Shown here: in pieces, positions 7,462 through 63,073 of the stretch | Layout: every line of letters begins with the position of its first letter | How positions within the stretch are numbered: the stretch's first letter is position 1 | Origin: Methylacidiphilum caldifontis | Lineage (GTDB): Bacteria; Verrucomicrobiota; Verrucomicrobiia; Methylacidiphilales; CAMAQI01 | Length of the DNA: 64,000 nt | Assembly (NCBI GenBank): GCA_945877805.1 | Contig: CAMCSM010000001.1 | Location: 10,221-74,220, forward strand | Direction of reading: 5' to 3' | The notes under the pieces: model-generated | Database searches by the model: none | Told to the model about the DNA's origin: nothing | What the model saw: the letters and a program-made list of their open reading frames with translations, nothing else | Made by a program: the position numbers and the translations under genes

Positions 7462-7464
7462 AAA

Positions 7465-34174: not shown

Positions 34175-34192
34175 AATACAATCGATTGTATT
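34175..34192. promoter_or_regulatory. candidate operator, perfect 18-bp palindrome aatacaatcgattgtatt (site 3)
   Basis: TACAA-TCGA-TTGTA with a central CG, about 65 nt upstream of the paralog A start codon. Confidence 0.6.
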
Positions 34193-34583
34193 TCAAGTGA
34201 AATGTGAATTCAGCCATCTTTTCCGAAAACCTTCGATCATTATTCGAGAAAATCGTGATTCTCGGATAAATAACAGACACAATTAGTTTAAATAATGAAC
34301 CTAATATCTCTTAGTGAAGTAAAGTCCAAGAGATTATGAAAAAATCATTTTTTGTATCGATAGGGAGGATGGGGAGGATAAATTCAAAAACAATTTTCTT
34401 TGGTCTTTATCCTGAAAATCCTCTCTATCGATGCAAAATTTTCCTGCCATGATAACTCATCCATTATGCAAGAATCAGAGGGTTACTCTCCAACTCCATG
34501 ATGACTCCGCCGAGTCCCCTCGGCTGCGGGTTGCGTCCCAGCCCCGATCCTTTTTCGGGGCTGCAATCTCTTCTCCCGCTGCT

Positions 34584-34605
34584 GCGCATAGGCGTCAACT
34601 TAAGG
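34584..34605. repeat. dispersed repeat copy (inverted cttaagttgacgcc core), preceded by a hairpin cluster at 34500-34585
   Basis: gcgcataggcgtcaacttaagg. Upstream of it are ctccgccgagtcccctcgg... and the 9-bp-stem hairpin cagccccga/tcggggctg. Confidence 0.65.
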
Positions 34606-34669
34606 GAAGAGAAAAGACTTCGTTTCAGCTCCTAAGCTTTCGTCTCAGGGAGCTGAACAGTAACTAATA

Positions 34670-35347: not shown

Positions 35348-35654
35348 AAATTAATTTCCTTTTTTATTGAAGTTGAAATTAAACTAACATTAGTTATCAG
35401 TTCCGTCTTCCCCTCCAATCCTGTAAAATGATCTTCCATTGAGTGGAACGACGACAACCTCATCAGCATTGATCATGAGGGAGATTTAAGTTTCCATCTC
35501 ATTTACAGTGGAATAAAAAAATATCTGAGGAAAGCAGGTGACATAAGTCGGGATTCGAAGACTTTCTTGCATTAGGAATCGGTTTGCCTCTTAAAACATA
35601 TTACCAAAATGGTGAAATATAAAAATCCTCAAACATCAATTCATTTTAATGGAA

Positions 35655-42138: not shown

Positions 42139-42147
42139 ATACAGGTT

Positions 42148-42669
42148 TTACCTATTTTGCTCGGATTTAGGCTCAAAAAAAATCGACCAAAGACTTTTCT
42201 TTCTGAGTAAGATTATTGTACAACCGTTTGTATTATTTTCAAGCCTATTTTTTATAAAAAGGACAAGGGCACTCAGGATGACGGTGTCTCGTATGATCCA
42301 CCAGAGATACTGAGAGCGATTTTGAGCAGAGGATTTCCCAAAACAACCACAAGTGATATCAAGTCCTCTGATCCATGCCTGAAGCATCGCAGAGATGAAA
42401 AAAAGCATCATCAACAAGAGGATCATGGAGGCACCCAGATCTATTTTATTGAAGAGAATAGAAAGTCCGCAAAGAATTTCTAAAATCGGAATAAAATAAG
42501 CGAAAAAAACTGAAAATGAATAGGAGATCAGTTGATAGGATTCGATCGTTTGGATGAAATCCACTGGCGACAGAATTTTAACGACTCCTGCCCAAAGAAA
42601 GAGGAGTGCAAGTCCAAAGCGAAGGATTTGTTCGATGATCAGCGTCCGTTTAATTTCCATGATTCCCAA
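42148..42669 (-). CDS. MauE/DoxX-family membrane protein
   Basis: 173 aa with four TM helices and the N-terminal block RFGLALLFLWAGVVKILSPVDF, typical of MauE/DoxX. Overlaps the rhodanese gene's 3' end. Confidence 0.7.
   Translation of the reverse strand: MGIMEIKRTLIIEQILRFGLALLFLWAGVVKILSPVDFIQTIESYQLISYSFSVFFAYFIPILEILCGLSILFNKIDLGASMILLLMMLFFISAMLQAWIRGLDITCGCFGKSSAQNRSQYLWWIIRDTVILSALVLFIKNRLENNTNGCTIILLRKKSLWSIFFEPKSEQNR
42217..42234. promoter_or_regulatory. candidate operator TACAA-CCGT-TTGTA (site 5), embedded in the 3' end of the MauE-like ORF
   Basis: attattgTACAACCGTTTGTAttatt lies 81-94 nt upstream of the GH35 start. Its flanks resemble site 1. Confidence 0.5.
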
Positions 42670-43061
42670 CCTCCGTGTAACACATAAACATTCAAAAAAC
42701 CGGCTGACCTCATTTGATCTGCGATGACTTTACTCGTATGGCAGCTTTGACTGCTACAATAGACGACGATATTTTGAGTTCCATTCCAAGCATTAAAAAT
42801 AATCGGAAGCTGATCCTCCCAATGATCTTCGTTAAGAGGAAGCGCATGAGGGATATGCTCTTGAAAATAATCATTATCAGAACGAGAATCGACCCATAAC
42901 GGATTCAATAACAAAGCCTCTTTTAAATCGATCTCCTCTTTTAACAAAGAAGTCCGAGTAAGGAGGGGGCGATGGGGATCAATTTCATAATGCACAAGAG
43001 AAAGTACCAGCGCGATACAAAATAAGAGGGAGGACTGGGAAATTATTTTTTTAATTTCCAT
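42639..43061 (-). CDS. rhodanese-like domain protein
   Basis: 140 aa with an N-terminal TM or signal segment and the active-site loop VVYCSSQSCHTS followed by VLHGGWESW. Confidence 0.8.
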   Translation of the reverse strand: MEIKKIISQSSLLFCIALVLSLVHYEIDPHRPLLTRTSLLKEEIDLKEALLLNPLWVDSRSDNDYFQEHIPHALPLNEDHWEDQLPIIFNAWNGTQNIVVYCSSQSCHTSKVIADQMRSAGFLNVYVLHGGWESWKLNGR

Positions 43062-43064
43062 AAA

Positions 43065-43739
43065 TTAGGGAGATGATGAAGATTGTTTTGGATCTTTTAT
43101 TTCGATATAGATCGTCGCAGGCTTCGAGGGCTTGTCGTCAATCAGTATTGGAATTTCTACGGATATTGAATCGGCGTGTGATGTATCCGTTGCCTTGACT
43201 TCAAGCTCATATATTTCATCTTTTTTTATTTCATTCATTTTAATAAAGAAGTGATGAAAGGAGGCCTCCTGAAGTTCTAATTTAACATCGTAGGATTTAT
43301 CAATCGTAATCACAGACTTTTTTGAAGAGATTTTTTCTCCGAGAGTCCAAAAAACAAGACGGGGAGAAATTTTAAAGGGCTGAGGGATATCGACCTCGAA
43401 AGCGAGCGTGATAACTGGGGTTTTTGAGTCAGTGGATTCGACTAGAATCTCCTTTTTTTGGAGGCCGGTTCGAGTACTCATATCAAAAGAGACAGAAATT
43501 TCTCCGGACTCATTTGGCTTGTAGGTAGTCTTAGGGATTTTGGCAAACGTACAATCACAGGAGGGTTGGACTTTGGTGATCGTGATGCTTGTCTTTCCGA
43601 TATTTTTAAATTTATAAACAAAATCGACTTTGGCTTCGTTTATTCCAGCTTTATATTTTTGAAAAACATTTTCCCAAAGAAGTTCAGCTCGTAATGTCGT
43701 AAAAGTAAGTAGTGAAAGAATTAAAAGTTTAAAAATCAT
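43065..43739 (-). CDS. DUF1573 domain protein
   Basis: 224 aa with a signal peptide and the YKFKNIGKTSITITKVQPSCDCT block characteristic of DUF1573. Confidence 0.8.
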   Translation of the reverse strand: MIFKLLILSLLTFTTLRAELLWENVFQKYKAGINEAKVDFVYKFKNIGKTSITITKVQPSCDCTFAKIPKTTYKPNESGEISVSFDMSTRTGLQKKEILVESTDSKTPVITLAFEVDIPQPFKISPRLVFWTLGEKISSKKSVITIDKSYDVKLELQEASFHHFFIKMNEIKKDEIYELEVKATDTSHADSISVEIPILIDDKPSKPATIYIEIKDPKQSSSSP

Positions 43740-43821
43740 AGAATAAATTAGTTAAATTATACCTCAAATAAATAGAATAAATATTAAATGGTAGGTCGTA
43801 GTTTTGTTAGAATTGTCCAAG

Positions 43822-45312
43822 TCATTTTATCATCATTTTTTCGACGCCGGAGAGAAGTGCTATTCCCTGAACCCGATTGAGTTCAATAAGGGATTTATCA
43901 AGATCTGAAATGGCAAGATTTTCGCTGCTTTCCGCATTTGCTAAATCTCTCTGAATTTGGAGGAGATTAAAAGTAGTGCTAATGCCCTCTTTGAGTTTTA
44001 ACTCCTCAACATGTAGCGATTCTTCTGTAAATCTTCGAGCCTCTCTTGCACTTAATACCTTTTCTCGATTTACTGAGACTTGTCCGAGTGAGTTATCAAT
44101 CTCCGCATATATTTCTTGTTCTCGTTTTTTAAGTAGAATGACCGATTGCTGTTTTTTAAGTTTCGCCTCTGTTAATTTTCCATCCGCAACACGATTTTGG
44201 AACAAATAGGTGAATCTAAATCCAAACTGCCACGACTTTTTTTCAAACTCTAATGAATTTGAATAGCTTTTCTGTAATTCTTCATCCTGACCGGAATAAC
44301 CGTAGCTTCCTGTGAGATCAAAAGAAGGCAACTTTTGATTTTCCAGATATTTTATTTGAATGTGATTCTTTTCTAATTCCTGGTTGATTTGCCGATAATC
44401 TGGACGATTTACGAATGCGGTTTGAATCGCTTTCTCTAAGGGGGGAAGGGGTAATTCTATGGGATCAGTATGCGAGGGAATTATCGTTTTGCCAAACCAC
44501 GGAAAGATTTCCGAAGTGATTAAAAGAAGGAGTTTATTTTGCTGATCCTGTATTTGTCGAGTCGCGACAGATAAGGCCTGCTGTCGAGTTGCGACCTCCG
44601 CATGTGCTCGTGAAATATCGAGGGAAGTCATAACGCCGATTTCAACTCTTTTTTGATTATCCTCCAGGAGCCGAGTGGCGAGCGATAAAGACTTTTCCTT
44701 GGCTTTAAAATCCTGACGAGCGAATACCAGATCACTATAAGTAGTTGCGACCTCACTCACAATTCTATCGATTTGACCTTGATAGGCGGTTATTGAAATT
44801 TCCAAGGAACGACGGGAGGTGTTTATAAGCACCATATTCGTCTCCATTCCAAAATCCTTAAGAAGGGGCTGGATGACGCTCACACCGATAAACGAAGAGT
44901 ATAAACGATCGAAGTCATTTACATTCGAAGTAGAATTAAGGTAATTATTGCTAAGCCCAAAAGTAGTTCCAAGCGCTATTTTTTGACTCAGTTCACTCTG
45001 AAATTGCGTTGATCTTGATTGACTGATCGAATCTGAAAAAGAAGGGACTTGTGACTCTCCGTATTGTCCATTTGTTATTAATTTTAAATCATAATCGCCT
45101 TGGCTTTCGTTCAGGTTAGCCTTTGATATTTCCGGATTCAGGCGGTGAAATGCGAGGTCGATATTTTTATCCAATGCCATACGTACACATTCAGAAAGCG
45201 TTAACGAGACCTCCTCAGCACCAAGAAATGAAACTAAAAAATAGAGAATTAATATAATATTTCTTGCTTTAATCCGGAACGACAAAATAAATCGAGACAG
45301 TAATTTATTCAT
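43822..45312 (-). CDS. TolC-family outer membrane efflux protein
   Basis: The N-terminus after the signal peptide reads LTLSECVRMALDKNIDLAF, and two coiled repeat halves follow. The track ORF extends to 45336; MNKLLSRF at 45312 is the more likely start. Confidence 0.8.
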   Translation of the reverse strand: MNKLLSRFILSFRIKARNIILILYFLVSFLGAEEVSLTLSECVRMALDKNIDLAFHRLNPEISKANLNESQGDYDLKLITNGQYGESQVPSFSDSISQSRSTQFQSELSQKIALGTTFGLSNNYLNSTSNVNDFDRLYSSFIGVSVIQPLLKDFGMETNMVLINTSRRSLEISITAYQGQIDRIVSEVATTYSDLVFARQDFKAKEKSLSLATRLLEDNQKRVEIGVMTSLDISRAHAEVATRQQALSVATRQIQDQQNKLLLLITSEIFPWFGKTIIPSHTDPIELPLPPLEKAIQTAFVNRPDYRQINQELEKNHIQIKYLENQKLPSFDLTGSYGYSGQDEELQKSYSNSLEFEKKSWQFGFRFTYLFQNRVADGKLTEAKLKKQQSVILLKKREQEIYAEIDNSLGQVSVNREKVLSAREARRFTEESLHVEELKLKEGISTTFNLLQIQRDLANAESSENLAISDLDKSLIELNRVQGIALLSGVEKMMIK

Positions 45313-46540
45313 ATCGCAAAGCCTCAATGGGATCAAGATAGGTGGCTTTTAAGGCGGGATAAATCCCCGCTAACACTCCCATTATAATACTAAAGCTAAA
45401 CCCGATAACTAATGTGCTATAATTTAAAATAGGCGGATATTCTACGATTATTTTTTTTAATAAATCAATCAAGTAAATACTAAGAATGAGTCCCAATCCC
45501 CCCCCCAACACACTGAGCATAATCGATTCGGAAATAAACTGGATAAAGATGTCGGAATCCCAGGCCCCGAGGGCCTTACGTACCCCAATTTCTCGAATTC
45601 TTTCTGTGATCGAGGCCAACATAAGATTCATGATTCCTATCCCTCCGATGACAAGAGTTATTCCTCCAATAGAAAATCCTGCGATCATGAATCCCTTTTT
45701 TATTTTTTCAAATTGGCGAACGTATTCCTCAAGAGTTTCGATATTAAAATTATGAATTCCTTTATGAGTGATTTTCATGATATTTTCGATCGCTTTAACC
45801 GTTTCACGGATTTGAGTGATATCTCGTATTTGAATCTGAATAGAGGTTAAATCATTTTTGGAGGTCAATTTTCGTCTGACAGTCGTTAATGGAATATAAA
45901 CAATCTTATTTTTTTTAGGAAGGGATCCGCCATACGGATCCTCTTCCTCTTCTGGATAGACTTTATAGTACTTACTTTTTCCGACTACCTCAAAGGGGAT
46001 TCCATTGACGTTTACAAACGATCCTTCGATGCTTTCTCTTGGAGAAAAAAGATCTCGATAAGCAAGAGCTCCTAAAAAAATTACATTTCCTGAGCTTTCA
46101 ATATCGAATGACTTTAAAAGTCGACCCTTATCTTCCTGTACACGCTCGACCTCAAAAATTTCAGGAGTGCACCCTAAAGCTTTCCCACGAAACACCTTCC
46201 CATTTCGAGTAATCACCGTATCCAGGCTGATTTCTGGAGAAACTCGTATCACCTCCGGTTTAAATGAGGAAAGAGCATGAACATCTTCTAGATTACATTG
46301 AGGCGCGATCCCTCTGAAGAAACGTTGAGATTCAGGAACATCATCATTAAAAATAGTAATTTTATTAAGCCCCCCCAACTCCCTCATCATCACGGAGTAG
46401 CTTTCAAATAGTCCTTCCATAAAGCTGAGAGTGAGAATCAGCGAACAGACCCCGATCATAACGCAAAATAGAGAAAGAAAGGAGCGTAGTTTATGCGCCC
46501 TAATTTCACGAATTCCGCTTCCGATTCTGCACCAGAACAT
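45305..46540 (-). CDS. ABC transporter permease (MacB/FtsX type)
   Basis: Begins IREIRAHKLRSFLSLFCVMIGV, has a large periplasmic domain and a C-terminal FtsX 3-TM bundle (RKALGAW...). The ATG at 46540 overlaps the ATPase stop by 1 nt (TAATG). Confidence 0.85.
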   Translation of the reverse strand: MFWCRIGSGIREIRAHKLRSFLSLFCVMIGVCSLILTLSFMEGLFESYSVMMRELGGLNKITIFNDDVPESQRFFRGIAPQCNLEDVHALSSFKPEVIRVSPEISLDTVITRNGKVFRGKALGCTPEIFEVERVQEDKGRLLKSFDIESSGNVIFLGALAYRDLFSPRESIEGSFVNVNGIPFEVVGKSKYYKVYPEEEEDPYGGSLPKKNKIVYIPLTTVRRKLTSKNDLTSIQIQIRDITQIRETVKAIENIMKITHKGIHNFNIETLEEYVRQFEKIKKGFMIAGFSIGGITLVIGGIGIMNLMLASITERIREIGVRKALGAWDSDIFIQFISESIMLSVLGGGLGLILSIYLIDLLKKIIVEYPPILNYSTLVIGFSFSIIMGVLAGIYPALKATYLDPIEALRYE

Positions 46541-47220
46541 TATCGTAACTCCATCGATTCTATTTTTCCATCCTTCACAATCATCTGCCGATGGCAATGA
46601 CCTGCGACCAGGGGATCATGTGTCACTAAAACAATCGTACGACCTTCATGATGGAGCGATTCAAAAATCTCCAAAATCATGGCTGCCGTCTTACTGTCAA
46701 GATTTCCAGTGGGTTCATCCGCAAGGATGATTTTAGGATTATTCAAGAGGGCACGAGCAATCGCCGCTCTTTGTTTTTGGCCTCCGGAAAGCTGATTGGG
46801 GAGATGATTTAGACGATTCCCCATTCCTACTTTATTCAAAGCGGTATGGGCTCTCTCTAATACTTTTGACTCAGGATGACGCTGATACACATAAGGCAAA
46901 AGCGTATTTTCCAAAACAGAGAGGCGGGGGAGAAGGTTGAAGGATTGGAAAACAAAACCGATTTTTTCAGAGCGAATCACGGCTCTTTCTCGAGAATTCA
47001 AACTTGAAAATTCAGTTCCTTCAAATTGAATTGAACCAGAGCTGGGTTGATCTAAAAAACCAAGGAGATGCATGATCGTTGATTTCCCCGATCCGGATGA
47101 GCCTCGAATAGCGATAGAGTCTCCTTCCTCGATTAAAAAGGAGACTTCATCGAGCGCTTTTATCCTCTCTGAACCCATCTTATAAATCTTGCTTACTTTT
47201 TTAAATTCAATGAGGGGCAT
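46540..47220 (-). CDS. ABC transporter ATP-binding protein (MacB/LolD type)
   Basis: 226 aa with Walker A (GSSGSGKST), the signature LSGGQKQR and Walker B (ILADEPTGNLD). Confidence 0.9.
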   Translation of the reverse strand: MPLIEFKKVSKIYKMGSERIKALDEVSFLIEEGDSIAIRGSSGSGKSTIMHLLGFLDQPSSGSIQFEGTEFSSLNSRERAVIRSEKIGFVFQSFNLLPRLSVLENTLLPYVYQRHPESKVLERAHTALNKVGMGNRLNHLPNQLSGGQKQRAAIARALLNNPKIILADEPTGNLDSKTAAMILEIFESLHHEGRTIVLVTHDPLVAGHCHRQMIVKDGKIESMELR

Positions 47221-47221
47221 C

Positions 47222-48334
47222 TTATTTTCCTAAAAATTCAGGAGGGATGATTAACGATACCGTTTCGGTATCCTTCAATCCCTCACGGATCTCAATGAGG
47301 TTAGCATTATGAACGCCTGTTATTACTGAGCGTTGTTCGTACTTCCCTTCTAAATTTAAGACATAAACAGAGGAATTTCCCTCCTCTTGAAAAACGGCGG
47401 CGAGCGGCAATGTTAATATATTTTTAAATTCTGCGATTTTAATCAAGACTTGGACTCCCATTCCAGGCCGGACAAGCGGATTTTCTGTCGTAAAATGGAT
47501 TCGAATTGGAAAACTGCGAATCTCCTGATCACTTCCTTTCGCTGTGGCGTAGGGATAAATATAAGAGATATTTCCTATTATATTAACTCCTGGAATTCCA
47601 TAGAATGAGAGTTCCACGGGAAGTCCGGACTGAAGTTTCGTGACATCTATTTCGCTCACATCCGCTTTGACCTCCAGCGAATTTACATTCCCTAAATACA
47701 TCAGGGTTGTACCTGATGATATTCCATCTGCGCCAACAACAACCGCCCCAACCATAACGGGTAGACTCAAAACCTCTGCATCAAAAGGAGCTCGAATCGA
47801 GGTCTTAAGAAGATCTTGTTGTAGGGTTTTAAGACGTACTTTTTGAAGTTGATAATCATTTTCTGCGATACGTGAGTCAATGCTCGTATCCTCAAATTCT
47901 TTTTTAGAAATTAAATCCTGCTTATAAAGGGCTTTTTTTCGAACGATTTCTTGCTGAATTTTTTCTGATTGAAGCCTGGTTGATTCAATGCTTAGGAGCG
48001 ATTCATTCACCTGGCTCTCTAATTTTCCCCGATCCAATTCAATTAAAATCTGATCCTTGACCACTTTTGCGCTCGGTTTTACGAGGATTTTATCGATCTG
48101 TCCCCTAATTTCTGACTTAAGTTCCACACTTTGAATGCAAGCCACTTCACCATTACATACCAAGGTCTGAATGATCTCTTTATATTCTGCTTTTACGGAT
48201 GGAATGGCCAATATTGCCTCTTGTTTTTTTAAAATTAACTTATCTTTTTGATAGAGATAAATAAATCCACTTAATAGAACAATGATCCCAAAGATAATTC
48301 CTATCTTTATTATTTTTTGTATTCGATTGCTCAT
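47222..48334 (-). CDS. efflux periplasmic adaptor (MacA/HlyD_D23 family)
   Basis: 370 aa with an N-terminal TM helix, a lipoyl-like block (ILVKPSAKVVKDQILIELD), a coiled-coil hairpin and a beta-barrel. Confidence 0.8.
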   Translation of the reverse strand: MSNRIQKIIKIGIIFGIIVLLSGFIYLYQKDKLILKKQEAILAIPSVKAEYKEIIQTLVCNGEVACIQSVELKSEIRGQIDKILVKPSAKVVKDQILIELDRGKLESQVNESLLSIESTRLQSEKIQQEIVRKKALYKQDLISKKEFEDTSIDSRIAENDYQLQKVRLKTLQQDLLKTSIRAPFDAEVLSLPVMVGAVVVGADGISSGTTLMYLGNVNSLEVKADVSEIDVTKLQSGLPVELSFYGIPGVNIIGNISYIYPYATAKGSDQEIRSFPIRIHFTTENPLVRPGMGVQVLIKIAEFKNILTLPLAAVFQEEGNSSVYVLNLEGKYEQRSVITGVHNANLIEIREGLKDTETVSLIIPPEFLGK

Positions 48335-48419
48335 TATGAATTATTTATCGAAATTATTTCTAAGCATTTATTTTAATTCTTAGATTTTAATTTAAACGAC
48401 AGAAATGATTTAAACTGAA

Positions 48420-48450
48420 CTCCTCTGCGCATTGCGCAGAGGAGTTTTTT
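48420..48450. terminator. strong GC hairpin between the peptide gene and macA (terminator or attenuator candidate)
   Basis: ctcctctgcgc-att-gcgcagaggag (11-bp perfect stem) followed by T6 on the plus strand. For minus-strand transcripts the stem is followed by UUCAGUUUAAAU, which is only moderately U-rich. Confidence 0.55.
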
Positions 48451-48542
48451 ATGCCTGAGTAGAATAATCAAGCATCCAAGTATGATTTTAAATCTTTAAA
48501 CTCGTTTCTTCTCATGAAAAAACGAGGGAAAAGTAAAAATCT

Positions 48543-48737
48543 TTACTTAACGTCATTGCCTAATGGGCGGTTAACAGGACATCCTCTGCAAGCTCCTGTT
48601 ACAGTGAATGTAAATGGTTTTTTAAATCTATCACTATAATAACTTTTACTGTTTCCGCTTCCAGATGCCTGAGCCTCGGTTGTAGGAAGGAGATTTAACA
48701 CTGTTCCTACAATTGTAAGAATTAACATTTTTTTCAT
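48543..48737 (-). CDS. small secreted CxxC peptide (64-aa precursor)
   Basis: Signal peptide MKKMLILTIVGTVLNLLPTTEAQA followed by a basic 40-aa tail SGSGNSKSYYSDRFKKPFTFTVTGACRGCPVNRPLGNDVK. First gene upstream of the MacAB-TolC genes. Confidence 0.5.
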   Translation of the reverse strand: MKKMLILTIVGTVLNLLPTTEAQASGSGNSKSYYSDRFKKPFTFTVTGACRGCPVNRPLGNDVK

Positions 48738-48750
48738 TTATTATCCTTTT

Positions 48751-48768
48751 GTGATATTTCTATCACAC
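48751..48768. promoter_or_regulatory. inverted repeat tgtgata-tttc-tatcaca just upstream of the peptide gene
   Basis: 7-bp perfect arms, 14-31 nt upstream of the start codon at 48737. Confidence 0.4.
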
Positions 48769-49067
48769 TTTATTTATTAATATTTCCGTATTTTTCGGCG
48801 CATTTCTTTCTTAGAAATGCTATCAACCTAAAATAGAAGAAATATTAAATTGTCTTTATTTGATAAAAAATACACTCCCTGTATTTCCCTCATAAGAGAC
48901 TTAAGGTATTATTTTATTCCCATTTTTTTCTGCCTACTGAGATTTGAGGTGGCCCCCGAAATTCAGGCCAGAGGTTAAGCTGTCGAATGGAGGTCAAGGG
49001 AGGAACAAAAGTTCAAAATGGAGTCACTAAAATGAGTACAAAGAAATACTTTTCATCTTCTAAAAGA

Positions 49068-54920: not shown

Positions 54921-55134
54921 TTCACCATAGCATGTAAGTTCCTCATAAGGAAAATGATATGCAATTCACGATGACCTCCTGTTGAAATCCTCATTAATTT
55001 CGCTGACTCGCTGCGCCGCGGCGGGAAACTGTGACTTTCAAATTCCGTTCATCTGTATTTTATCGATAGAATAAGTTGTCTTTGCTCTCATTTTTGCCCT
55101 TGCACTCAACCTCAACGCAAATTATCTTAAAGGC

Positions 55135-55350
55135 ATGAGTATCGCAGAGATTAGACAACTGCCTCAAAAGGAGAAATTCCTCATCATGGAGGCTCTCTGG
55201 TCTGATTTGATTTCCCCAGAAGAAAATTTTGAAGCCCCATCATGGCACGCCCTCGAACTCCAAAAAACGGAGCAGGAGTTAAAACAAGGTCTTATCCAAT
55301 CCATGGATTGGGACCTCGCCAAAAAGAACCTCTTGAAACGTTTTGAGTGA
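55135..55350 (+). CDS. addiction-module antitoxin (putative addiction module component family)
   Basis: 71 aa beginning MSIAEIRQLPQKEKFLIMEALWSDL. Its stop overlaps the toxin start (GTGA). Confidence 0.75.
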   Translation: MSIAEIRQLPQKEKFLIMEALWSDLISPEENFEAPSWHALELQKTEQELKQGLIQSMDWDLAKKNLLKRFE

Positions 55351-55637
55351 AAATTCGAATCCTTTCTCCCGCCATTGAAGATCTGGCTCATGGGAGAATT
55401 TTCTACGAAAAGCAAAGCCTCGGCCTCGGGAGTTATTTCTTTACCAGCCTCTTCTCTGAAATCGACTCCCTTATTTTATATGCAGGAATCCATCCGATAC
55501 GGTCAGGTCATCATCGCCTTTTAGCAAAGCGATTTCCGTACGCAATCTACTATAAAATTCATCGCCAAGAAATTCTTATTCACCGTGTTCTCGATTGCCG
55601 CCGTGATCCCCAATGGATTTTAAACGAATTAGGCTAA
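55347..55637 (+). CDS. type II toxin, RelE/ParE family
   Basis: 96 aa with the blocks ...RFPYAIYYKIHRQEILIHRVLDCRRDP, typical of ParE/RelE plasmid-stabilisation toxins. GTG start. Confidence 0.75.
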   Translation: MKIRILSPAIEDLAHGRIFYEKQSLGLGSYFFTSLFSEIDSLILYAGIHPIRSGHHRLLAKRFPYAIYYKIHRQEILIHRVLDCRRDPQWILNELG

Positions 55638-55916
55638 CAGTTTCTAAAACTCCTCTTTTTGCCTCACCCCACTTTTAACAAAAACGAAATGTCTCAAAAA
55701 AACCGCAGCCAATTCACCAAAGAGCAAAAAGAGTGACCCTAACCATCTCCAATTGGAACCAAATCACCGAATGGCTCCAAGAGGTCAAATCCTTCAGGGA
55801 AAGCCTCCCTCCAGAGACGCTTTTCTCCTTAAAGGGGCGAAATCCAGCCATAAATCCCTCCTCTCAAAGAGAGCCTTATAGGTCTAAAACCAAGATAGAA
55901 AGCCCCACTTCACCTA

Positions 55917-56903
55917 CTATCCAAATAACCGTTTAATTGAAAATGGTTGAAACTTTGAAGAAACCTTTTCGATACTCTCTTTTTCGCTGTTACCTGCATC
56001 AATAAGAGAAAAAACCTGATTAATACCGTTCAGCAAAGCGATCTGAGAATACTTGCGAGACTGTAACGTAACATACCCAAGATCAAAGAAAACCGTTCCT
56101 ACTTCATTGTTTTTCTTCACTCGATGTTCAGAAAGATCCCCTCCATTAGATATATTACTTTTATGGTAATAACGTATGTAAACCTCACTCTCATTCCAAG
56201 TGTAGGTTCCATTCCCGAAAATCGCGTCAATTGAAGCCGCCTGCAACGGTGTGGAAAGAAAGCAATATTCTTTTTTAATAACAAATGGGTTATTTTTTGA
56301 ACCAATTCCATCTACATAATTTTTATAGTTTTCAATTAAGTACAAAAAAAGTTTTTGTTTCCCATCCAATTTCTTTTCAACGCTCATATTTTTCTCCTCC
56401 ACAGATCCTTCATTATTGGTGGAACGTATATCGCTATATGCCTTTAAAGCACATTGCATCTTAACAACGGCTGAAATCAAATTTGACCATACTTCATCTG
56501 TAAATGATTTAGAGATCGATTTTTCCGAACCGTGAATTGCAGCTTCTAAATCTATTTCCTCTCCTTTCGCCCATTTTTCCCGCAATGAGAGTCCAATGAA
56601 ATAATTTATTGTTGAAGCCTCTTCTAAAGTTATTTGAGAATCAGAAACATCTCTAAGGGATTGAAAATATTTACTGCGGATCTCTTCGTTTTCAGGGAAA
56701 CAAGCTAGAGTTTTTTTCGCCATAATCTTCTCGCATTTTGCAGAATCTTCATCGAGATGAGCTCGTAAAAATTCCTTTCCTAAAAAAAGCATTTCCTCGG
56801 ATTTAATAATATATTCAGGCTTTATTGTAATCCTAAAATCGCTCCCATTTTTCAGAACTTCTTCTGGTATATTGATATTAAGACGCCTCATTTTATGCTC
56901 CAT
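55917..56903 (-). CDS. hypothetical protein, second gene of the nuclease cassette
   Basis: 328 aa with no recognisable motif. AT-rich. Starts 7 nt after the upstream nuclease gene ends. Confidence 0.55.
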   Translation of the reverse strand: MEHKMRRLNINIPEEVLKNGSDFRITIKPEYIIKSEEMLFLGKEFLRAHLDEDSAKCEKIMAKKTLACFPENEEIRSKYFQSLRDVSDSQITLEEASTINYFIGLSLREKWAKGEEIDLEAAIHGSEKSISKSFTDEVWSNLISAVVKMQCALKAYSDIRSTNNEGSVEEKNMSVEKKLDGKQKLFLYLIENYKNYVDGIGSKNNPFVIKKEYCFLSTPLQAASIDAIFGNGTYTWNESEVYIRYYHKSNISNGGDLSEHRVKKNNEVGTVFFDLGYVTLQSRKYSQIALLNGINQVFSLIDAGNSEKESIEKVSSKFQPFSIKRLFG

Positions 56904-56910
56904 TGTATGT

Positions 56911-57834
56911 TCACACAGATTTTTCTATAATCCAATCTACCAATCCGAGCCTAATCACCTTCTCTGCAATTTGATCCTCAAACCAAAACTCCACGGTAAA
57001 GTGCTTATCGTCGGGCTTAAATCTCAGATTCATTACCTTCAAATCAGACTTCGGCTGATGAACGATGTAAAAGAAAGTTTTGATCTTCTCGAACTCATCC
57101 ATCTGATCCAAGTCGGATTCAAAATCAGCCTTGGATGCCATTGATTTCACCTGAACAGCCGAAAAATCGTCCGTGATAGGATTGGAAACCTGAAAGTCGA
57201 TAGTTTTAAGACTCCCTCCGAGCTCTCCAGAGCGAAATAATCCAGATTGCCTAAAGATGAGGTCGATGAGGATCTCGAAGTCTCTCCAATGAAGCTGGAG
57301 GATTAGGGGCTTGATTCGCTGAATGAGTGCTTTTTTAGCTTCCTTCAAAGCGATCAACTCCTGAGAGGTATTCCCTTCGATGATATTTTCAATCAATTGA
57401 TGTCGATAATCCTTAATCCTGCAAATCGTTCCCCTAAACCCCCGAACCATCTCGATTGATCCCGGAACAGGATTATAGTTTTGATTTTGCAGATTAACAC
57501 TCTTCCAGCCAATACAGGATCGAGTTTTGCGTCCTTGGACATCATCGAAGAGCGTTTTTCCATTGATTCTAGTCCAATACATCTGGTTACCCGAAAAAGT
57601 GATCCAGAGATCCTTTTCGTCCGATTCACAGAAAGCCGCAATTTGATTGGAGTGAGAGGTCGCCGCCCCCTGTGTTGCTCCATTGACAATGTACCATCCT
57701 TTAATCTCCTCCCATTTTCTCTCTTTAATCAGAGCTGGGGGAACATTTCGGTAGTCCAAAATTATAATACTTTGGGACTCCGCTTCTTGAAAATACCCTC
57801 CACCTTTGCCCAACTTGACATAGTAAATCGCCAT
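56911..57834 (-). CDS. Mrr-like PD-(D/E)xK restriction endonuclease domain protein with an unknown N-terminal domain
   Basis: 307 aa. The C-terminal block WRDFEILIDLIFRQSGL...LKTIDFQV...FSAVQVKS fits the Mrr_cat pattern (FE..L, D, QxK). The N-terminal ~170 aa are unassigned. Confidence 0.6.
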   Translation of the reverse strand: MAIYYVKLGKGGGYFQEAESQSIIILDYRNVPPALIKERKWEEIKGWYIVNGATQGAATSHSNQIAAFCESDEKDLWITFSGNQMYWTRINGKTLFDDVQGRKTRSCIGWKSVNLQNQNYNPVPGSIEMVRGFRGTICRIKDYRHQLIENIIEGNTSQELIALKEAKKALIQRIKPLILQLHWRDFEILIDLIFRQSGLFRSGELGGSLKTIDFQVSNPITDDFSAVQVKSMASKADFESDLDQMDEFEKIKTFFYIVHQPKSDLKVMNLRFKPDDKHFTVEFWFEDQIAEKVIRLGLVDWIIEKSV

Positions 57835-57893
57835 AGCTTAGATAGAGCATTGGTGCGGCGTTAGTCCAGTAGCATTTATGCTCCCTTAGGGAG

Positions 57894-58184
57894 GTGGATA
57901 AGGAATTCCTCAAATCTTTGGGACTGAGCCTAAAAAAGGCACGGCAAGAGATGGGCTTTACCCAAGAATGTTTAGCGGAAATGGTCGGGATTCATTGGAA
58001 GACGTTGGGCTATATCGAATCAGGAAAACGGGACTTCAGCGTTCTCACTTTATCTAAATTGATCGAATGCCTGAAACGAACCCCATCAGAGATCATCGTT
58101 AAATTGCCGAAAACAGACTCCAGAGCCTTGAAAACGATTGCCAAGGCAAAAGCCCGCCAAAGAAAACCTCGGACGCTCCAATAA
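57894..58184 (+). CDS. XRE-family helix-turn-helix regulator (controller-protein-like)
   Basis: 96 aa with LKKARQEMGFTQECLAEMVGIHWKTLGYIESGKRDFSVLTLSKL. Divergent from the nuclease cassette. GTG start. Confidence 0.8.
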   Translation: MDKEFLKSLGLSLKKARQEMGFTQECLAEMVGIHWKTLGYIESGKRDFSVLTLSKLIECLKRTPSEIIVKLPKTDSRALKTIAKAKARQRKPRTLQ

Positions 58185-58418
58185 GCGTTTTTTAAGCCAT
58201 CTGCGTAATACGATAAGGCTATTCCTTTTTTGCTCTTTTACATGAGAGCTAAAATATTGAATATGAGCTACTTACAACCTGAGAGGCTCTGCTCTTTCAA
58301 AACAACAAAAAACAAACTCTAACAAACTTTTTAAGACAATATAAAAAACTTAAATTTCACTCTTTTTTGAGATTAAATCAAACTCAGAGCTATCTAAAAG
58401 CTATAATGGAAAATTGAT

Positions 58419-58748
58419 TTAACCCTTCTTCAATTGCTGATCGTCATAACGAGCCGATTCAATTCGATAGTCAGTCGGTACGCTCTCCAGATGAGGAAAC
58501 TTTATCCAATACTGGCCTCCAAATATCTTGAGCATAGCCCAATGCCACGCCTCATCATGAAACACAAGCCCTCGAAGTTCTCCAACATCTGCGGGTTCAT
58601 AATAATAGAATTCCTCCGCAAGTTTTTTGGCATCGTCCTCTGATGATTTACCGTAAGCAACAAAACACCACGCAAACATATGCCTCTCGTGATGGAGATA
58701 TTGAATATATTCGCTCTCCTTCCAATTGGATTGATTATTTAAACTCAT
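58419..58748 (-). CDS. hypothetical protein
   Basis: 109 aa, Trp/Tyr-rich, with no known motif. Lies 14 nt downstream of the 131-aa gene. Confidence 0.45.
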   Translation of the reverse strand: MSLNNQSNWKESEYIQYLHHERHMFAWCFVAYGKSSEDDAKKLAEEFYYYEPADVGELRGLVFHDEAWHWAMLKIFGGQYWIKFPHLESVPTDYRIESARYDDQQLKKG

Positions 58749-58762
58749 TTAAATTTCCAAAA

Positions 58763-59158
58763 TTACACTTGTTCATAAAATTCACTGATTTTCTTGAAAA
58801 CCAAACCATCACCTTCTGCGATAACTGACCTTATCTGCCCGATATATTTCCCCTCTTTAAAGAAGGCAAGACATCCATCCCCTTTAAATGAAATATCAGG
58901 AACACCTAAAGCGCAAACTTCTGCTGCAAGATAAACAAGATCCTCCTCAAATACTCCAAAATAGAAATGAACATCTTGTTGGCTAGCTTGGAAATGAGTC
59001 TCTATATTTTCTACCAACTCTTTGCTTTCTCTGCAATACCGAGACCATGGAGAGTGCAAAAAAAGAAGCCCGTATTTTCTTCGTAAGAACTCTCTCAAAC
59101 TCTCTTTATTAGTAATCTCAATCATCTTATTTAATTGTGTGACATGAATCTTACCCAT
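58763..59158 (-). CDS. thioredoxin-fold-like protein lacking a CxxC motif
   Basis: 131 aa. LLFLHSPWSRYCRESKELVENI aligns by eye with the thioredoxin WCGPC region, and GVPDISFKGDG with the cis-Pro loop. Only one Cys sits at the active-site position. Confidence 0.4.
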   Translation of the reverse strand: MGKIHVTQLNKMIEITNKESLREFLRRKYGLLFLHSPWSRYCRESKELVENIETHFQASQQDVHFYFGVFEEDLVYLAAEVCALGVPDISFKGDGCLAFFKEGKYIGQIRSVIAEGDGLVFKKISEFYEQV

Positions 59159-59253
59159 TCAAATATATTCTCCATCCATATCTTTCGATAATTTTGGTCT
59201 TTTCTTAAATTGAACGTTGACGTATATTTTAATTAAAGTAAGATAACATAACG

Positions 59254-60039
59254 ATGGAAACCGAAAATAGCCTTCGAGCGAATGACCTTTTAAAGATCGC
59301 TGGACTCACGTATCGCCAATTAAATGATTGGGACGAGCGAGCGGGCATATTATCCTCCGATCGTTCCTCTAAAGCGGGCTGGAGGCGTTTTACGGGTGAC
59401 GAAGCCCTTGCTCTTTGCATTTGCGCCAAGCTACGGAATCAATTCTCCATTCCCCTTGAAAAGCTTCACCCTGTCCTGAAATGGCTTCTCGGAAAAACAG
59501 AGGATAATGCTCTTCAAAAAATGAAAAAAGAAGCGGATCGGTACATTCGGAATGCGGAAAAACAGCATCACACATTTTTGAACCTTGATGAAGAGTCCCT
59601 TCAAAAAGCACTGAAGGACGAGTCCAATCGACTCCTTCTTAGTGAGTACCGATTTGCCAAGATCAAATCCCTAGCCAACCTTCCTGTACGCTATGCCTAT
59701 GCCTTAGTGAATGTTGGGACAAAGATTAATCTTGTTACCGATTTTAATGAGATTTTCAGGATTTATACCTTTGATCAAACCCATTTATTGATTTCGTTTG
59801 ATCTTCATAATCCCCTGATTGTTCTTCCTTTGAGTCCGATTATTACCGAATTCAAGAAGGTCTTGGAAACCAAGACACCCAAACCCGATTTCTCTGAAAA
59901 GGCGTCAGAAGGTTCTGAGCCTAAAACGAAAGTAAACCCTCGTCGTTCCGCAAACCGAAAATTGAAGATCGTGAGTCACCAGGGCAAAAGCCCTCCTGAA
60001 CTTAATGTTATCTCTTCAAGAAATTCGGGAAATCCTTAA
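59254..60039 (+). CDS. MerR-type HTH domain protein (possible excisionase or regulator of the island)
   Basis: 261 aa. The N-terminus LLKIAGLTYRQLNDWDERAGIL matches the MerR/excisionase HTH pattern. Directly upstream of the recombinase. Confidence 0.5.
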   Translation: METENSLRANDLLKIAGLTYRQLNDWDERAGILSSDRSSKAGWRRFTGDEALALCICAKLRNQFSIPLEKLHPVLKWLLGKTEDNALQKMKKEADRYIRNAEKQHHTFLNLDEESLQKALKDESNRLLLSEYRFAKIKSLANLPVRYAYALVNVGTKINLVTDFNEIFRIYTFDQTHLLISFDLHNPLIVLPLSPIITEFKKVLETKTPKPDFSEKASEGSEPKTKVNPRRSANRKLKIVSHQGKSPPELNVISSRNSGNP

Positions 60040-60220
60040 TAATCCAGATTTAGATGACACAGAAATCTCTGCACTAAGAGATGACGCTTATCTTCTGGCG
60101 AATGTTTTTATTGATATGTTTATTGAAAATAAAAAAAAATCCAAACGGGCGACTGAGCCCGCAGCATTCGATCAAAAAAACACTTTTAAAGATGAAACCC
60201 CCTTTAATTCCCTCCGTTAA
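60005..60220 (+). CDS. small acidic hypothetical protein
   Basis: 71-aa ORF bridging the MerR-like and recombinase genes. It looks more protein-like than the alternative N-terminal extension of the recombinase ORF. Confidence 0.35.
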   Translation: MLSLQEIREILNNPDLDDTEISALRDDAYLLANVFIDMFIENKKKSKRATEPAAFDQKNTFKDETPFNSLR

Positions 60221-61742
60221 AAATAAAGCCGTCATTTACTGCCGTGTTTCTACGAAAGATCAGGTTGAAAATAACAGCCTCGAATCTCAAGAAAAAGAGT
60301 GCCGGAAGTATTGCGTTGCTCATGAGCTAGATATTGTCGAAGTATTTGTTGAGCCTGGAGAAAGCGCCAAAACAGTTAATCGTCACGAGTTTCAGAGGAT
60401 GCTTGGTTTTTGTCAAAAAAATAAAGGTCGAATCTCGCATCTTATTACTTACAGCACGAGTAGGTTTAGTCGAAATAACGATGATTACTACGCAGTTAAG
60501 GCATATCTCACTAAAATGGGCATCGTCTTAAGATGTACTTCTGAGCCATTTGATGAAACTCCTCAAGGTAAATTTATGGCAGGAGTTTATGCTTTAACGT
60601 CACAGCTCGATAATGATTTAAAATCCGTGAGGACGATCGATACAATGAATGAAGCCCGAGCCAAAGGACATTGGCTTTCTAAACCTCCCTTAGGATATCG
60701 AGCTGGAGATAAAAATTTCGGTGCAAGTCTAATTCCCGATCCCGAAAGAGCAGAGCATGTTCAAAAAGCTTTTTCAATGATGGCCACTGGAATATTTTCA
60801 ATCCAAGAGGTGCTTAAAAAATTAAATCTTGAGGGATTTAAAACCCGTGGAGGAAAACCTGTTTCCATTCAGACATTTCGCCAACTTCTAAGGAAAAAAG
60901 CCTACATAGGAAAAATTGTCTCACAGCGAACCTCTGATATTTTTCAAGGAGACTTTATTCCTCTTATTGACGAAAACCCTTTCTTCCGAGTTCAAGAGAT
61001 TTTAGATGGAAAAACAAAACTCGTTAAAACATATCAAAAAATAAACCCTGACTTTCCCTTGCGAAACTTTGTGATCTGCGCGCACTGTCAAAAAGGCTTC
61101 TCAGGAAGCCACTCCAAGGGAAGAAACAGCTCCTATGCGTACTATACACCCGTTTGTCGTTGCTCTGGAGGAAATTCACCGAGTATCCGCAAAGAACGAT
61201 TAGAGAGCGACTTCTTCGCAGAACTCGAATTTTTAAAGCCAAAACAGCATCTCTTTCAAATGGTCAATAAGGTGATTCGGGACGCCACAAAAATGAGACA
61301 AAAAGGAAATCTCGATCGAAAAACTACCCTCAAAAAGAAAATGGATGATCTTCGTAAAAAACGAATGACTCTTGATGAGCGGTTTGCGTTTGAAAAAGCC
61401 ATCGATCAAGAAACATACGACCGTTTAAAAATTCAGATTCAAAATGATGAAGGGGAGATAAAGGCTGCACTCTATGAAATCGAGAGCGAGCTTTTCCATC
61501 CTGATGAGGTAATTCAATTCGCAGAAGTGGCGATGACAAATGCAGCAAGCCTCTGGAAGGATCTTCCCATGCCGCATAAACATCGCTTCCAATACCTTCT
61601 TTTTCCCCGTGGAGTCGAATATTCGGATGGGAAATTAAAAACCGCTGATAAAAGCCTCATCTTCAGTCTCTTAGAAAAGAAAAATGAGAGCGAAGATGGT
61701 TTGGTGACCCTAACGGGACTCGAACCCGTGCGTCAGCCTTGA
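60192..61742 (+). CDS. large serine recombinase (integrase)
   Basis: Catalytic block AVIYCRVSTKDQ, resolvase and recombinase domains, a Cys-rich zinc-ribbon region (CAHCQKGF...CRC) and a C-terminal coiled coil. The start is chosen at MKPPLIPS. The last 41 nt overlap tRNA-Glu on the opposite strand. Confidence 0.85.
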   Translation: MKPPLIPSVKNKAVIYCRVSTKDQVENNSLESQEKECRKYCVAHELDIVEVFVEPGESAKTVNRHEFQRMLGFCQKNKGRISHLITYSTSRFSRNNDDYYAVKAYLTKMGIVLRCTSEPFDETPQGKFMAGVYALTSQLDNDLKSVRTIDTMNEARAKGHWLSKPPLGYRAGDKNFGASLIPDPERAEHVQKAFSMMATGIFSIQEVLKKLNLEGFKTRGGKPVSIQTFRQLLRKKAYIGKIVSQRTSDIFQGDFIPLIDENPFFRVQEILDGKTKLVKTYQKINPDFPLRNFVICAHCQKGFSGSHSKGRNSSYAYYTPVCRCSGGNSPSIRKERLESDFFAELEFLKPKQHLFQMVNKVIRDATKMRQKGNLDRKTTLKKKMDDLRKKRMTLDERFAFEKAIDQETYDRLKIQIQNDEGEIKAALYEIESELFHPDEVIQFAEVAMTNAASLWKDLPMPHKHRFQYLLFPRGVEYSDGKLKTADKSLIFSLLEKKNESEDGLVTLTGLEPVRQP

Positions 61743-61777
61743 GAGGGCTGTGTCCTAACCGACTAGACGATAGGGCC
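61702..61777 (-). tRNA. tRNA-Glu (anticodon CUC), CCA encoded
   Basis: Minus-strand sequence GGCCCTATCGTCTAGTCGGTTAGGACACAGCCCTCTCAAGGCTGACGCACGGGTTCGAGTCCCGTTAGGGTCACCA. Anticodon stem is CAGCC/GGCTG, and the loop CTCTCAA gives CTC. Confidence 0.9.
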
Positions 61778-61891
61778 TTTTGTGGAATCCACAGATATAT
61801 CGAAAAACGAAATCCCTGCAATCGAAATAATTACTCACCTTTATTCCTCTACTCGATCATTGTCTGGAGTTGCCCATTGAATTTGTTTGTG

Positions 61892-62226
61892 TCCATCAGC
61901 TGACCATGCGCATCAACCTAAGGAATTCATTCAAAGGCATTTTCTCACACGAAGGCGCGAAGAACACGAAGTGAGAAATAGAAAGACTCTTCGAGGTGAT
62001 TCACCTGTTTTTAAAAAGCTCTCGAAAGCTCGTTTTCGAGAGCTTTTTAAAAATAGGGAGGAGGCTCGCAAGAGCCGTGGTCAGAACAAGGGGTAGGGAG
62101 GCATTTAACTTCGTGTCGTTGTGCCTTCGTGTGAGACAAGGTTTTTTTGAAAGTTCGCCCCATAATAAAGAGCCTTAAGTTGACGCCCATGGTCAGCTGA
62201 CGGATCGTGGCTTCGTGTGAAAATGG
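61892..62226. repeat. 335-bp imperfect palindrome built from two inverted copies of a dispersed repeat
   Basis: tccatcagctgaccatgcgcatcaacctaagg (61892-61923) pairs with the reverse complement of 62173-62204. The ctcacacgaaggc...acgaagt blocks are also mirrored. The centre is a 20-bp perfect hairpin. Confidence 0.75.
62008..62053. repeat. perfect 20-bp-stem hairpin at the centre of the palindrome
   Basis: tttttaaaaagctctcgaaa (62008-62027), loop gctcgt, then tttcgagagctttttaaaaa (62034-62053). Confidence 0.9.
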
Positions 62227-62313
62227 TTTTAAATCTATTTTGGACACTAGCAGTGTGATTTATCCGAACGGATAGGGTTTGCTTTTCGATTTAAATTTTG
62301 GGTTAATTCCTCC

Positions 62314-62721
62314 ATGTCCTCTCGTAAAGAAAAGATCAACACTACTGGGGCGACTCCCTCTCTCGCCTTTAATGCTTTTGAAGCCCTCGCCTCGCTCGAC
62401 ACCTCCGCGCTTCCCCCAGGGGAATTTCGACCGATCCCCGCCAGTAAAACGGCGCCGGTCGATAAGCCGAAAAAAGGACGACTCATTTTACGCCGTGAAA
62501 AAAAGGATCGTGGCGGAAAAACGGTCGTTGTTGTTTACGGATTTGATCAACTCCCCGGATGGGGGTTCGATAAAATGGATGCCCTCTGCCGAGAGATCCG
62601 GAAGAAGATCGGATGCGGGGGGACCGTTGAGGGAAAAGAGATCATGATCCAAGGAGATCAGGCGGCGAGAGTCGCCGAATATCTCGAAGCCCAAGGTTTT
62701 CGCGTCGATGGAGTCCGGTAA
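62314..62721 (+). CDS. yciH: translation initiation factor SUI1/YciH family protein
   Basis: 135 aa with RREKKDRGGKTVVVVYGF and CGGTVEGKEIMIQGDQAARVAEYLEAQGF, typical SUI1 blocks. Confidence 0.85.
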   Translation: MSSRKEKINTTGATPSLAFNAFEALASLDTSALPPGEFRPIPASKTAPVDKPKKGRLILRREKKDRGGKTVVVVYGFDQLPGWGFDKMDALCREIRKKIGCGGTVEGKEIMIQGDQAARVAEYLEAQGFRVDGVR

Positions 62722-63073
62722 GCACGTGAGCCGCTAAGGGGAGCCTGATAGCTGGATAGCTGAATAGCGAAGGAAATACTGTCTTGAACCACGAATGGAC
62801 ACGAATGCGCACGAATTTAAAGACATTCAAAACAGGGCAGTTTCGCCCGGCGGCCGGAACAAATCCAAAGCCATGAGAAAAACAATCTTCACAAACGCGT
62901 TTGTAAGAGTCGTTTTTTTCATGGTTTGAATTCCGATTCTGATCGGAAATTTCCCTGTTTTGGGGTTGGGGATTAATATCAGTGTCGATAAGTGAAGATA
63001 AGCGGTTAAAAATTGCCTTTAACCCTAACGGTTAATTTCTTCCTTCCCCATCAGCCCCACAGTCTACGCTTAG

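Follow-up and report, generated by a model that had tools for sequence, protein, structure and literature searches.

An integrative element at the extreme 3' end of a tRNA-Glu gene, probably inserted by its own large serine recombinase, whose reading frame runs on into the tRNA antisense

Why should the reading frame of an integrase end inside a tRNA gene on the opposite strand? The question is raised by a 64,000-nucleotide stretch of the Methylacidiphilum caldifontis assembly GCA_945877805.1 (contig CAMCSM010000001.1, positions 10,221 to 74,220; this whole stretch is called the window, and positions refer to it), in which the open reading frame (ORF) int of a large serine recombinase (LSR) runs into the antisense strand of tRNA-Glu(CUC). 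We propose that positions 55744..61714 are, with good confidence, an integrative element inserted by its own LSR (Int) into the extreme 3' end of this tRNA gene. The same architecture recurs through a large LSR clade, at tRNA-Glu and at least seven other tRNA isotypes. The features on which the argument turns are the following:

61702..61777, minus strand: tRNA-Glu(CUC) (ARAGORN; Rfam tRNA, 64 bits)
60192..61742, plus strand: int, large serine recombinase, 516 aa in the integrated form (Pfam)
55733..55743, plus strand: attL core GTGACCCTAAC, putative crossover dinucleotide GA at 55735-55736
61704..61714, plus strand: attR core GTGACCCTAAC, putative crossover dinucleotide GA at 61706-61707
55645..55732, minus strand: host-side B arm, native tRNA-Glu 3' trailer (homologous to 2755-2848 of contig L085, see below)

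Boundaries of the insert and the empty site

The int ORF overlaps the tRNA gene by 41 nt and stops at a TGA (61740-61742) complementary to nt 37-35 of the tRNA, within its anticodon loop; this overlap, reported in a preliminary description of the locus, was confirmed by the ARAGORN and Rfam coordinates together with the ORF end. The same description had placed the left boundary of a 6.7-kb island near 55100 and had found no repeat on that side, and on these points it has to be corrected. Indeed, the 11-nt core GTGACCCTAAC, antisense of tRNA nt 74-64, is present in two identical copies, one within the tRNA end (attR) and the other (attL) in the intergenic region between a toxin gene and a gene for a 328-aa protein. 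The displaced repeat is only 11 nt long because the crossover lies at the extreme 3' end of the tRNA.

A scan of GTDB genomes with the tRNA sequence alone led to the contig L085 (GTDB contig CAMAQI010000201.1, a metagenome-assembled genome labelled Methylacidiphilum sp.), in which the same tRNA carries no insert and both flanks join precisely at the 11-nt core:

L085 2849-3836 with window 61704-62725: 92% identity
L085 2755-2859 with window 55645-55743: 78% identity
L085 789-1132 with window 55013-55355 (antitoxin gene and upstream region): 94% identity

Since these syntenic flanks meet at the core, the insert measures 5,971 bp (55744..61714). The region is therefore a horizontally acquired insert, as had been proposed, and the core repeat and the empty site also bear out that the att site lies within the 3' end of the integrase gene. 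The scan gave one further genome match, an occupied site in a genome labelled Akkermansia muciniphila, and an exact attB query containing the window's own B arm had no match in the GTDB genomes. The repaired attB was reconstructed as …GCAAAAAGA[GAAC]GTGACCCTAACGGGACTCG….

Two other loci are occupied, by elements that differ in size and context, as befits a site-specific insert. The first, L171 (Logan ERR2681669), holds an 8,506-bp element (964-9470) with a 100% identical Int, the same core and junction types and extra cargo (DSPc phosphatase, DUF4238 and DUF6932); its contig ends 21 nt past the int stop, within the tRNA. The second, L003, holds a 5,886-bp element (5627-11513) in a different chromosomal context, with the same trailer-core-P' and int-core-tRNA junctions (P' being the element arm at attL), and is a mosaic: its Int is 52% identical to that of the window, but the last ~35 residues and the att region are identical. 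Comparison of empty and occupied sites indirectly suggests that Int performs the attP x attB recombination.

In the occupied state, tRNA-Glu is a chimera in which nt 1 to ~71 belong to the host and nt ~72-76 come from the element. No more than the final 4-5 nt of the tRNA thus derive from the element. The remainder of the 41-nt overlap is host DNA, and the last 11 residues of the 516-aa Int, past the crossover, are encoded by the antisense of the host tRNA. The earlier suggestion that recombination took place in the tRNA gene therefore stands, but the site is at nt 71-74 and not in the 3' half at large. The native gene in L085 ends ...GGGTCAC|GTT without an encoded CCA, and the TGG of 61702-61704, which gives the tRNA strand its encoded CCA, comes from the element; since the L085 tRNA has no CCA, insertion makes tRNA-Glu a CCA-encoding gene. 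The tRNA-Ser(GGA) of the window (655-740) likewise has no encoded CCA.

Could the overlap be an accident of the first available stop, in an ORF that merely adjoins the tRNA, the island having arrived by another route or being core genome? A stop-free antisense run of 13 codons has a chance of about one half, (61/64)^13 ~0.5, and is unremarkable alone. The drop in GC content is modest: the element (0.398) is indeed lower than the window (0.447) and the flanks (0.43-0.47), as first described, but the drop is not "sharp", given that other patches of the window (34000-36000 and 42000-49000, GC 0.33-0.40) are as AT-rich as the element or more so. Against this stand the exact join of the empty site at the 11-nt core, an in-frame tRNA-antisense tail in 111 of 120 homologs, a conserved in-frame continuation at attL (both described below) and the lack of any other recombinase in the insert. 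We consider an accidental origin scarcely credible, and both chance overlap and a core-genome region were rejected on the L085 empty site and the homolog tails.

The Int protein itself appears complete in its domains, with Resolvase (PF00239, 2.6e-30), Recombinase (PF07508, 8.5e-13) and Zn_ribbon_recom (PF13408, 1.7e-5) matches. Its ORF extends 60081/60192..61742, and the start at 60192 agrees with the database protein P0001 and with the N-terminus of the family. The catalytic serine of YCRVST is invariant (34 and 59 homologs aligned), as are, in the homolog alignment, the zinc-ribbon cysteines C296, C299 and C322, with C327 nearly so. The AlphaFold model of the homolog P0025 (core pLDDT, the predicted local distance difference test, >90) has two paired long helices, 342-389 and 396-422, corresponding to a coiled-coil insert. 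This sole recombinase of the insert is of the serine family, and not the tyrosine integrase by which Islander islands are defined.

The trailer on the host side of attL is a module of ~100 nt with an inverted repeat, CTCTTTTTGC/GCAAAAAGAG, followed by a U-run. Its homolog in L085 adjoins the tRNA directly at the empty site, and the module may be the native tRNA-Glu terminator; by itself, the hairpin fold of the trailer is not significant (z -1.45), and an Rfam scan of the module matched no RNA family. The module consists of AAAACTCCTCTTTTTGCCTC, ~60 nt and then GAGCAAAAAGAG[AAC]. It precedes all copies of the 11-nt core, also the additional ones that border integrase-free cargo blocks (toxin-antitoxin pairs, CreD):

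Window 55645-55732; L085 2217-2306 and 2755-2848; L171 873-963: trailer-module copies
L003 547-643, 1369-1456, 4408-4504 and 5532-5626: trailer-module copies

Speculatively, the repeated trailers could mark modules that have no int of their own and regenerate attB through a right end resembling the trailer. Further left, between a LacI-type gene and the antitoxin gene, a 17-nt sequence that matches the int 3' region aaaaatgagagcgaaga (61680-61696) at 16 of 17 positions lies inverted on the minus strand at 55079-55095 (BLAST E 0.15); it could be due to chance or be the relic of an older element.

Recurrence of the overlap among related recombinases

What had looked like a quirk of one locus turns out to be a habit that defines a large LSR clade. 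Among the 120 best homologs of Int (36-52% identity, from many environments), 111 carry the antisense T-arm peptide at their C-terminus, for example ...L[AV]xxTG[FIL]EP[VG]LPP, and 85 of those 111 stop at the same tRNA position; a long form was found in two of the 120. It is this conservation that makes the overlap non-random. A JGI metagenome set gave 80 loci, or 67 once 13 ORFs running off their contig had been left out; in 42 of these 67 the ORF ends within an ARAGORN tRNA of the opposite strand, with a modal overlap of 41 nt. The tRNA is Glu in 28 cases, Ala in 6, Arg in 3, and Asn, Lys, Phe, Trp and His in one each; four additional cases on long contigs are all at tRNA-Glu(UUC). More remote relatives in IMG/VR (27-36% identity) have ORFs that enter Ala, Arg or Met tRNAs or a tRNA-like tail at the contig end. 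About 55 still more distant large LSRs from IMG/VR have no tRNA at the ORF end, except two that read through tRNA-Lys. Targeting of the tRNA 3' end with ORF overlap is therefore a shared habit of this large and apparently undescribed clade.

L090 contains two different LSR elements in tandem (3435-5066 and 5055-11518) at one tRNA-Glu(UUC); the upstream LSR ORF also terminates at the shared core, and the downstream element carries, among other cargo, a TIR-domain protein and an SDH-type protease. In L101, L108, L126 and L136, the int ORF enters a tRNA 3' half only, the tRNA-like sequence stopping at the anticodon loop; the pattern looks like that of later anticodon-loop insertions, by which the LSR element and the former tRNA 3' half would have been moved away as one piece. 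In L089 (1-7700), the island beside a family member holds DruA (Druantia) and a large DEAD/MZB helicase, which places defence systems among the cargo of the element family.

Attachment-site geometry and the C-terminal extension of Int

The following features of the left arm are needed here:

55744..55762, plus strand: P' arm, with TTGGAACC at 55753-55760, a candidate zinc-ribbon-domain binding motif
55744..55936, plus strand: detached 3' end of the int ORF, continuing the frame that int has at the core

With a small extension profile, attL could be located in nine integrated loci. The identity blocks of the nine attL/attR pairs are 9-13 nt long and intersect at offsets 2-5, that is tRNA nt 74-71, which places the probable strand exchange at a dinucleotide within nt 71-74, most likely 72/71 (GA here). 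A simple k-mer repeat search located no attL in L088, L089 or the IMG/VR proviruses, probably because these elements reach beyond the 10-kb flank or have cores shorter than 9 nt.

Right of the core, (A)GTTGGAACC is present in every P' arm, and in 12 of 16 aligned arms exactly 30 nt separate the end of the motif from the TGG that is antisense to CCA; the window and the IMG/VR contig L006, aligned by hand, have this same spacing. On the tRNA side, the T-arm motif TTCGAACC (TCGAACC, antisense at 61720-61726, the B' zinc-ribbon motif) ends 25 nt out. The motif TTGGAACC in attP thus lies 5 bp further outward than TTCGAACC, and the right half-sites fit the LSR pattern, since an outward shift of the zinc-ribbon motif by 5 bp between attP and attB is a hallmark of LSR sites, as described for the LI integrase (Rutherford et al. 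2013, PMC3783163). From these spacings and this hallmark we infer that the zinc-ribbon domain would read the T-arm and the recombinase domain the acceptor 3' strand. By eye, an inner dyad with its centre at nt 72|71, GATGGTT-TGGTG|ACCCT-AACCATC, can be made out in the reconstructed attP of the window. The element of L090 adjoins the P arm of a different LSR element, so that the left arm appears dispensable and tandem insertion possible.

The left end offers a second observation. Right of the attL core, the int frame stays open (VTLT|ISNWNQITEWLQEVKSFRES...QITV*, ending at 55936), and joining 60192-61714 to 55744-55933 gives a protein of 571 aa; the reconstructed attP reads …GATGGTTTGGTGACCCTAACCATCTCCAATTGGAACC…. 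An excised circle would rejoin this detached end to int. In the integrated state, the last 57 residues after the common TLT are exchanged for eight tRNA-antisense residues (GLEPVRQP) and the anticodon-loop stop. Long forms without a tRNA exist in P0025 (547 aa, locus L001; ...LATLT|LTSWNQLVASLREFHLLKDS...) and P0049 (573 aa, locus L002; ...LATLT|DASLKQIVDWLREVDLLRQG...), and such P-P' junctions are also found in L006 and at least five metagenome loci (L130, L134, L148, L156 and L164). The P-P' forms have neither a tRNA nor a second LSR downstream within the distance inspected (up to 10 kb), and the frame is open in every one examined. The detached end of the window is homologous to the tails of P0025, P0049, L006, L164 and others. 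Further out than the P' motif, between 32 and 74 nt past the position of the tRNA end, twelve sequences have in common an amphipathic motif, [ILV]xx[WCS]L[QRK][EQR][VFIL][DE]x[LF][RK]. In the P0025 extension, AlphaFold predicts a helix at 501-517, with low confidence (pLDDT 36-54). Several family members end in ...AA (PRAA, LAAA, MEAA, RRAA and PEAA, in L006, L007, L009, L011, L130 and L164), which resembles the degradation tags of ssrA type that have been described in integrases of mycobacteriophages; the window extension, for its part, ends ...QITV. PHROG annotation of L006 failed to place phage genes on both sides of int.

This extension might be no more than an in-frame reading of the DNA that forms the P' half-site, without a role as protein, in which case integration would be functionally neutral. 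Its most conserved part, SWNQ, coincides with the DNA motif TTGGAACC, its AlphaFold confidence is low, and its length varies (~20-65 aa), the sequences diverging after ~30 residues. However, the conservation reaches outside a 25-bp half-site, the frame is kept open throughout the P-P' forms, and pairwise nucleotide identity is highest at second, then first, then third codon positions (0.43/0.64/0.37 for positions 1/2/3), the codons of conserved Leu, Glu and Arg residues varying synonymously. This codon pattern indicates selection at the protein level, and we hold the footprint explanation to be the less favoured one, though it deserves real weight.

Taken as a mechanism, the insertion of the element by its own LSR could proceed as follows. 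The zinc-ribbon domain would read the near-universal T-arm motif TTCGAACC in attB and its TTGGAACC copy, 5 bp outward, in attP, while the recombinase domain would read the acceptor 3' strand; these contacts are deduced from sequence geometry. The P arm would mimic the last nucleotides of the tRNA and supply the encoded CCA, leaving the tRNA intact. As only the tRNA-side half-site seems to be needed, insertion could be repeated beside earlier elements. The circle would encode the 571-aa Int with its conserved amphipathic end, and integration would leave the 516-aa form. As a working hypothesis, the two isoforms might differ in activity, directionality or stability, so that the integration state would feed back on the recombinase. 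More tentatively still, and with the odds rather against us, we would see here a cross-phylum LSR clade specialised on tRNA 3' ends, retargetable through its acceptor mimic, in which the C-terminal swap of Int acts as a built-in state sensor that partly replaces or gates a directionality factor.

Several observations weigh against this proposal. The crossover dinucleotide is bounded only to within 4 nt. Unusually for LSR sites, the B and P arms show no zinc-ribbon motif in convincing mirror image, and a search for one yielded, by eye, only a short inner palindrome (GGTT..AACC). The attP junction of the element was not found in IMG/VR, and the reconstructed C-terminal 108 aa had no match among 5.8 billion proteins. 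The extension helix is placed by AlphaFold with low confidence. Terminal-overlap tests on L001 and L002 were negative, no P-P' contig is proven circular, and some P-P' junctions may be chromosomal, judging from the L134 contig, which also bears tmRNA (transfer-messenger RNA) and tRNA genes. With neither an excised circle nor an attP junction of this copy found, its current mobility is presumed from other evidence.

The same facts could describe a dead remnant, that is an Int truncated by its own integration, like the archaeal "suicidal" integrases of SSV type, and a copy that has become fixed. The integrated ORF is indeed without the conserved C-terminal segment, the searches named above recovered no excised form, and 92% of the database homologs are of the integrated form. 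On the other side, the junction lies downstream of all the catalytic and DNA-binding domains, which are intact; at attL, the detached end of the ORF has stayed open and undamaged, and the site is empty in a close relative. Moreover, an identical Int with different cargo in another sample and near-identical cargo with a 52%-identical Int in another genome point to recent mobility and mosaicism. We therefore judge a dead remnant improbable and retain the insertion of an element by an LSR with all its domains in place.

Known systems, cargo and neighbouring genes

The closest precedent, compared by architecture, is DsiB of the Dehalococcoides ssrA-specific islands (McMurdie et al. 2011, PMC3146451). 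There, too, an LSR at the island edge has an ORF that always crosses the att site into the antisense of the tRNA-like 3' end of the target RNA gene, and island arrays adjoin the target; the authors suggested that the gene is possibly complete only on the circle (PMC3146451). DsiB islands, however, sit at the tmRNA gene, where the repeat measures 20 bp and insertion is proposed to be in the T-loop; the present family uses tRNA genes, with a core of 9-13 bp at the acceptor end. The DsiB module also comprises a small serine recombinase (DsiA), RecF-like and ParB proteins and Mom with an embedded tRNA-like gene, none of which is among the insert proteins, and the DsiB tails were reported to diverge and probably to have no function, in contrast to the conserved circle-form tail of the present family.

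With the LI/A118, Bxb1 and phiC31 integrases, Int shares the set of resolvase, recombinase, zinc-ribbon and coiled-coil parts, the short att sites and, at the right half-sites, the 5-bp motif shift (PMC3783163). Those phage LSRs, in contrast, have protein-coding or intergenic targets, an attP outside the int ORF and two recognisably related half-sites, whereas the present family targets tRNA 3' ends, has its attP within the int ORF and is conserved in the right half-sites alone. The archaeal SSV and the mycobacteriophage systems resemble it in that attP lies in an element gene and tRNA integration alters the product (PMC8371274, PMC9262239), but they use tyrosine recombinases; the SSV int is split mid-gene and the mycobacteriophage repressor loses a degradation tag, whereas the LSR here sheds a C-terminal segment only. 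Islander-type tyrosine islands likewise use the tRNA 3' side, keep the gene intact with a displaced copy of the tRNA end and accrete in tandem; they differ in having an unrelated recombinase family and a repeat of typically tens of nt, as opposed to 11 nt.

Among serine recombinases, Askora et al. (2011) reportedly found that the small serine recombinase of the Ralstonia phage phiRSM integrates at a tRNA-Ser gene, with the 3' end as attB; the enzyme is said to be of resolvase size, without recombinase or zinc-ribbon domains. We know of no overlap between the phiRSM recombinase ORF and the tRNA.

That tRNA targeting is unusual for LSRs, as had been remarked for this locus, agrees with the literature consulted, in which tRNA genes are stated or implied to be the province of tyrosine integrases (PMC4383910; Hatfull review, PMC9262239), and the systematic LSR survey of Durrant et al. 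(PMC10083194) never mentions tRNA. According to a review of archaeal recombinases, self-disrupting recombinases occur only in archaea (PMC8371274). A minority of tycheposons carry LSRs, for which att details were not found. If confirmed, the clade would represent a major new target class for serine integrases, with a structural rationale (the T-arm as zinc-ribbon motif and the acceptor strand as specificity determinant), and would provide a natural integrase whose isoform reports the integration state. LSRs that act on conserved tRNA-gene ends, seemingly with one specific half-site, could be ready-made or easily retargeted landing-pad enzymes, and island finders that limit tRNA searches to tyrosine integrases would overlook such elements.

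The remaining genes of the insert are listed below, from left to right:

55917..56903, minus strand: cargo gene, 328 aa, no family match (Pfam, PADLOC, PHROG); 100% identical in L003
56911..57834, minus strand: cargo gene, 307 aa, no family match (Pfam, PADLOC, PHROG); 93% identical in L003
57894..58184, plus strand: XRE-type helix-turn-helix (HTH) regulator, 96 aa (PF01381, 3.7e-11; regulator matches in PADLOC and PHROG)
58419..59158, minus strand: two small genes, 109 aa and 131 aa, no assigned function (ORF calls; Pfam, PADLOC and PHROG searched)
59254..60039, plus strand: MerR-like HTH protein, 261 aa (PF13411, 23.9 bits against a cut-off of 21.6)
60005..60220, plus strand: 71-aa ORF that overlaps the start of int and has counterparts in L003 and L090

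The XRE and MerR-like assignments of the preliminary description are upheld by these matches, and its "nuclease cassette" (the 328-aa and 307-aa genes) is a label that the searches do not verify; by eye only, the C-terminal part of the 307-aa protein is like a PD-(D/E)xK nuclease, and this protein has a 31% homolog in an unrelated element of L087. The MerR-like gene, the 71-aa ORF and int form a module conserved in L003 and L090. The MerR-like protein has an 81%-identical counterpart in L003 and shares 43% identity with L090 over its N-terminal 86 aa; as the conserved upstream partner of int it is a candidate regulator or directionality factor. The 71-aa ORF (blastp 4.6e-9 in L003 and 3.9e-12 in L090; no family match in PADLOC or PHROG) is also a candidate directionality factor.

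The toxin-antitoxin pair at 55135-55637, formerly counted with the island, lies outside the att-bounded insert, and the antitoxin gene with its upstream region is found beside the empty site of L085. Of its ParE/RelE annotation, the antitoxin is supported (PF09720, 3.4e-11), but the 96-aa toxin has no match in Pfam (E<0.01), PADLOC or PHROG. Finally, between the tRNA and a SUI1 gene, a weak His_leader-like Rfam match at 61910-62051 (32.7 bits against a gathering threshold of 49, E 0.024) is probably due to chance.

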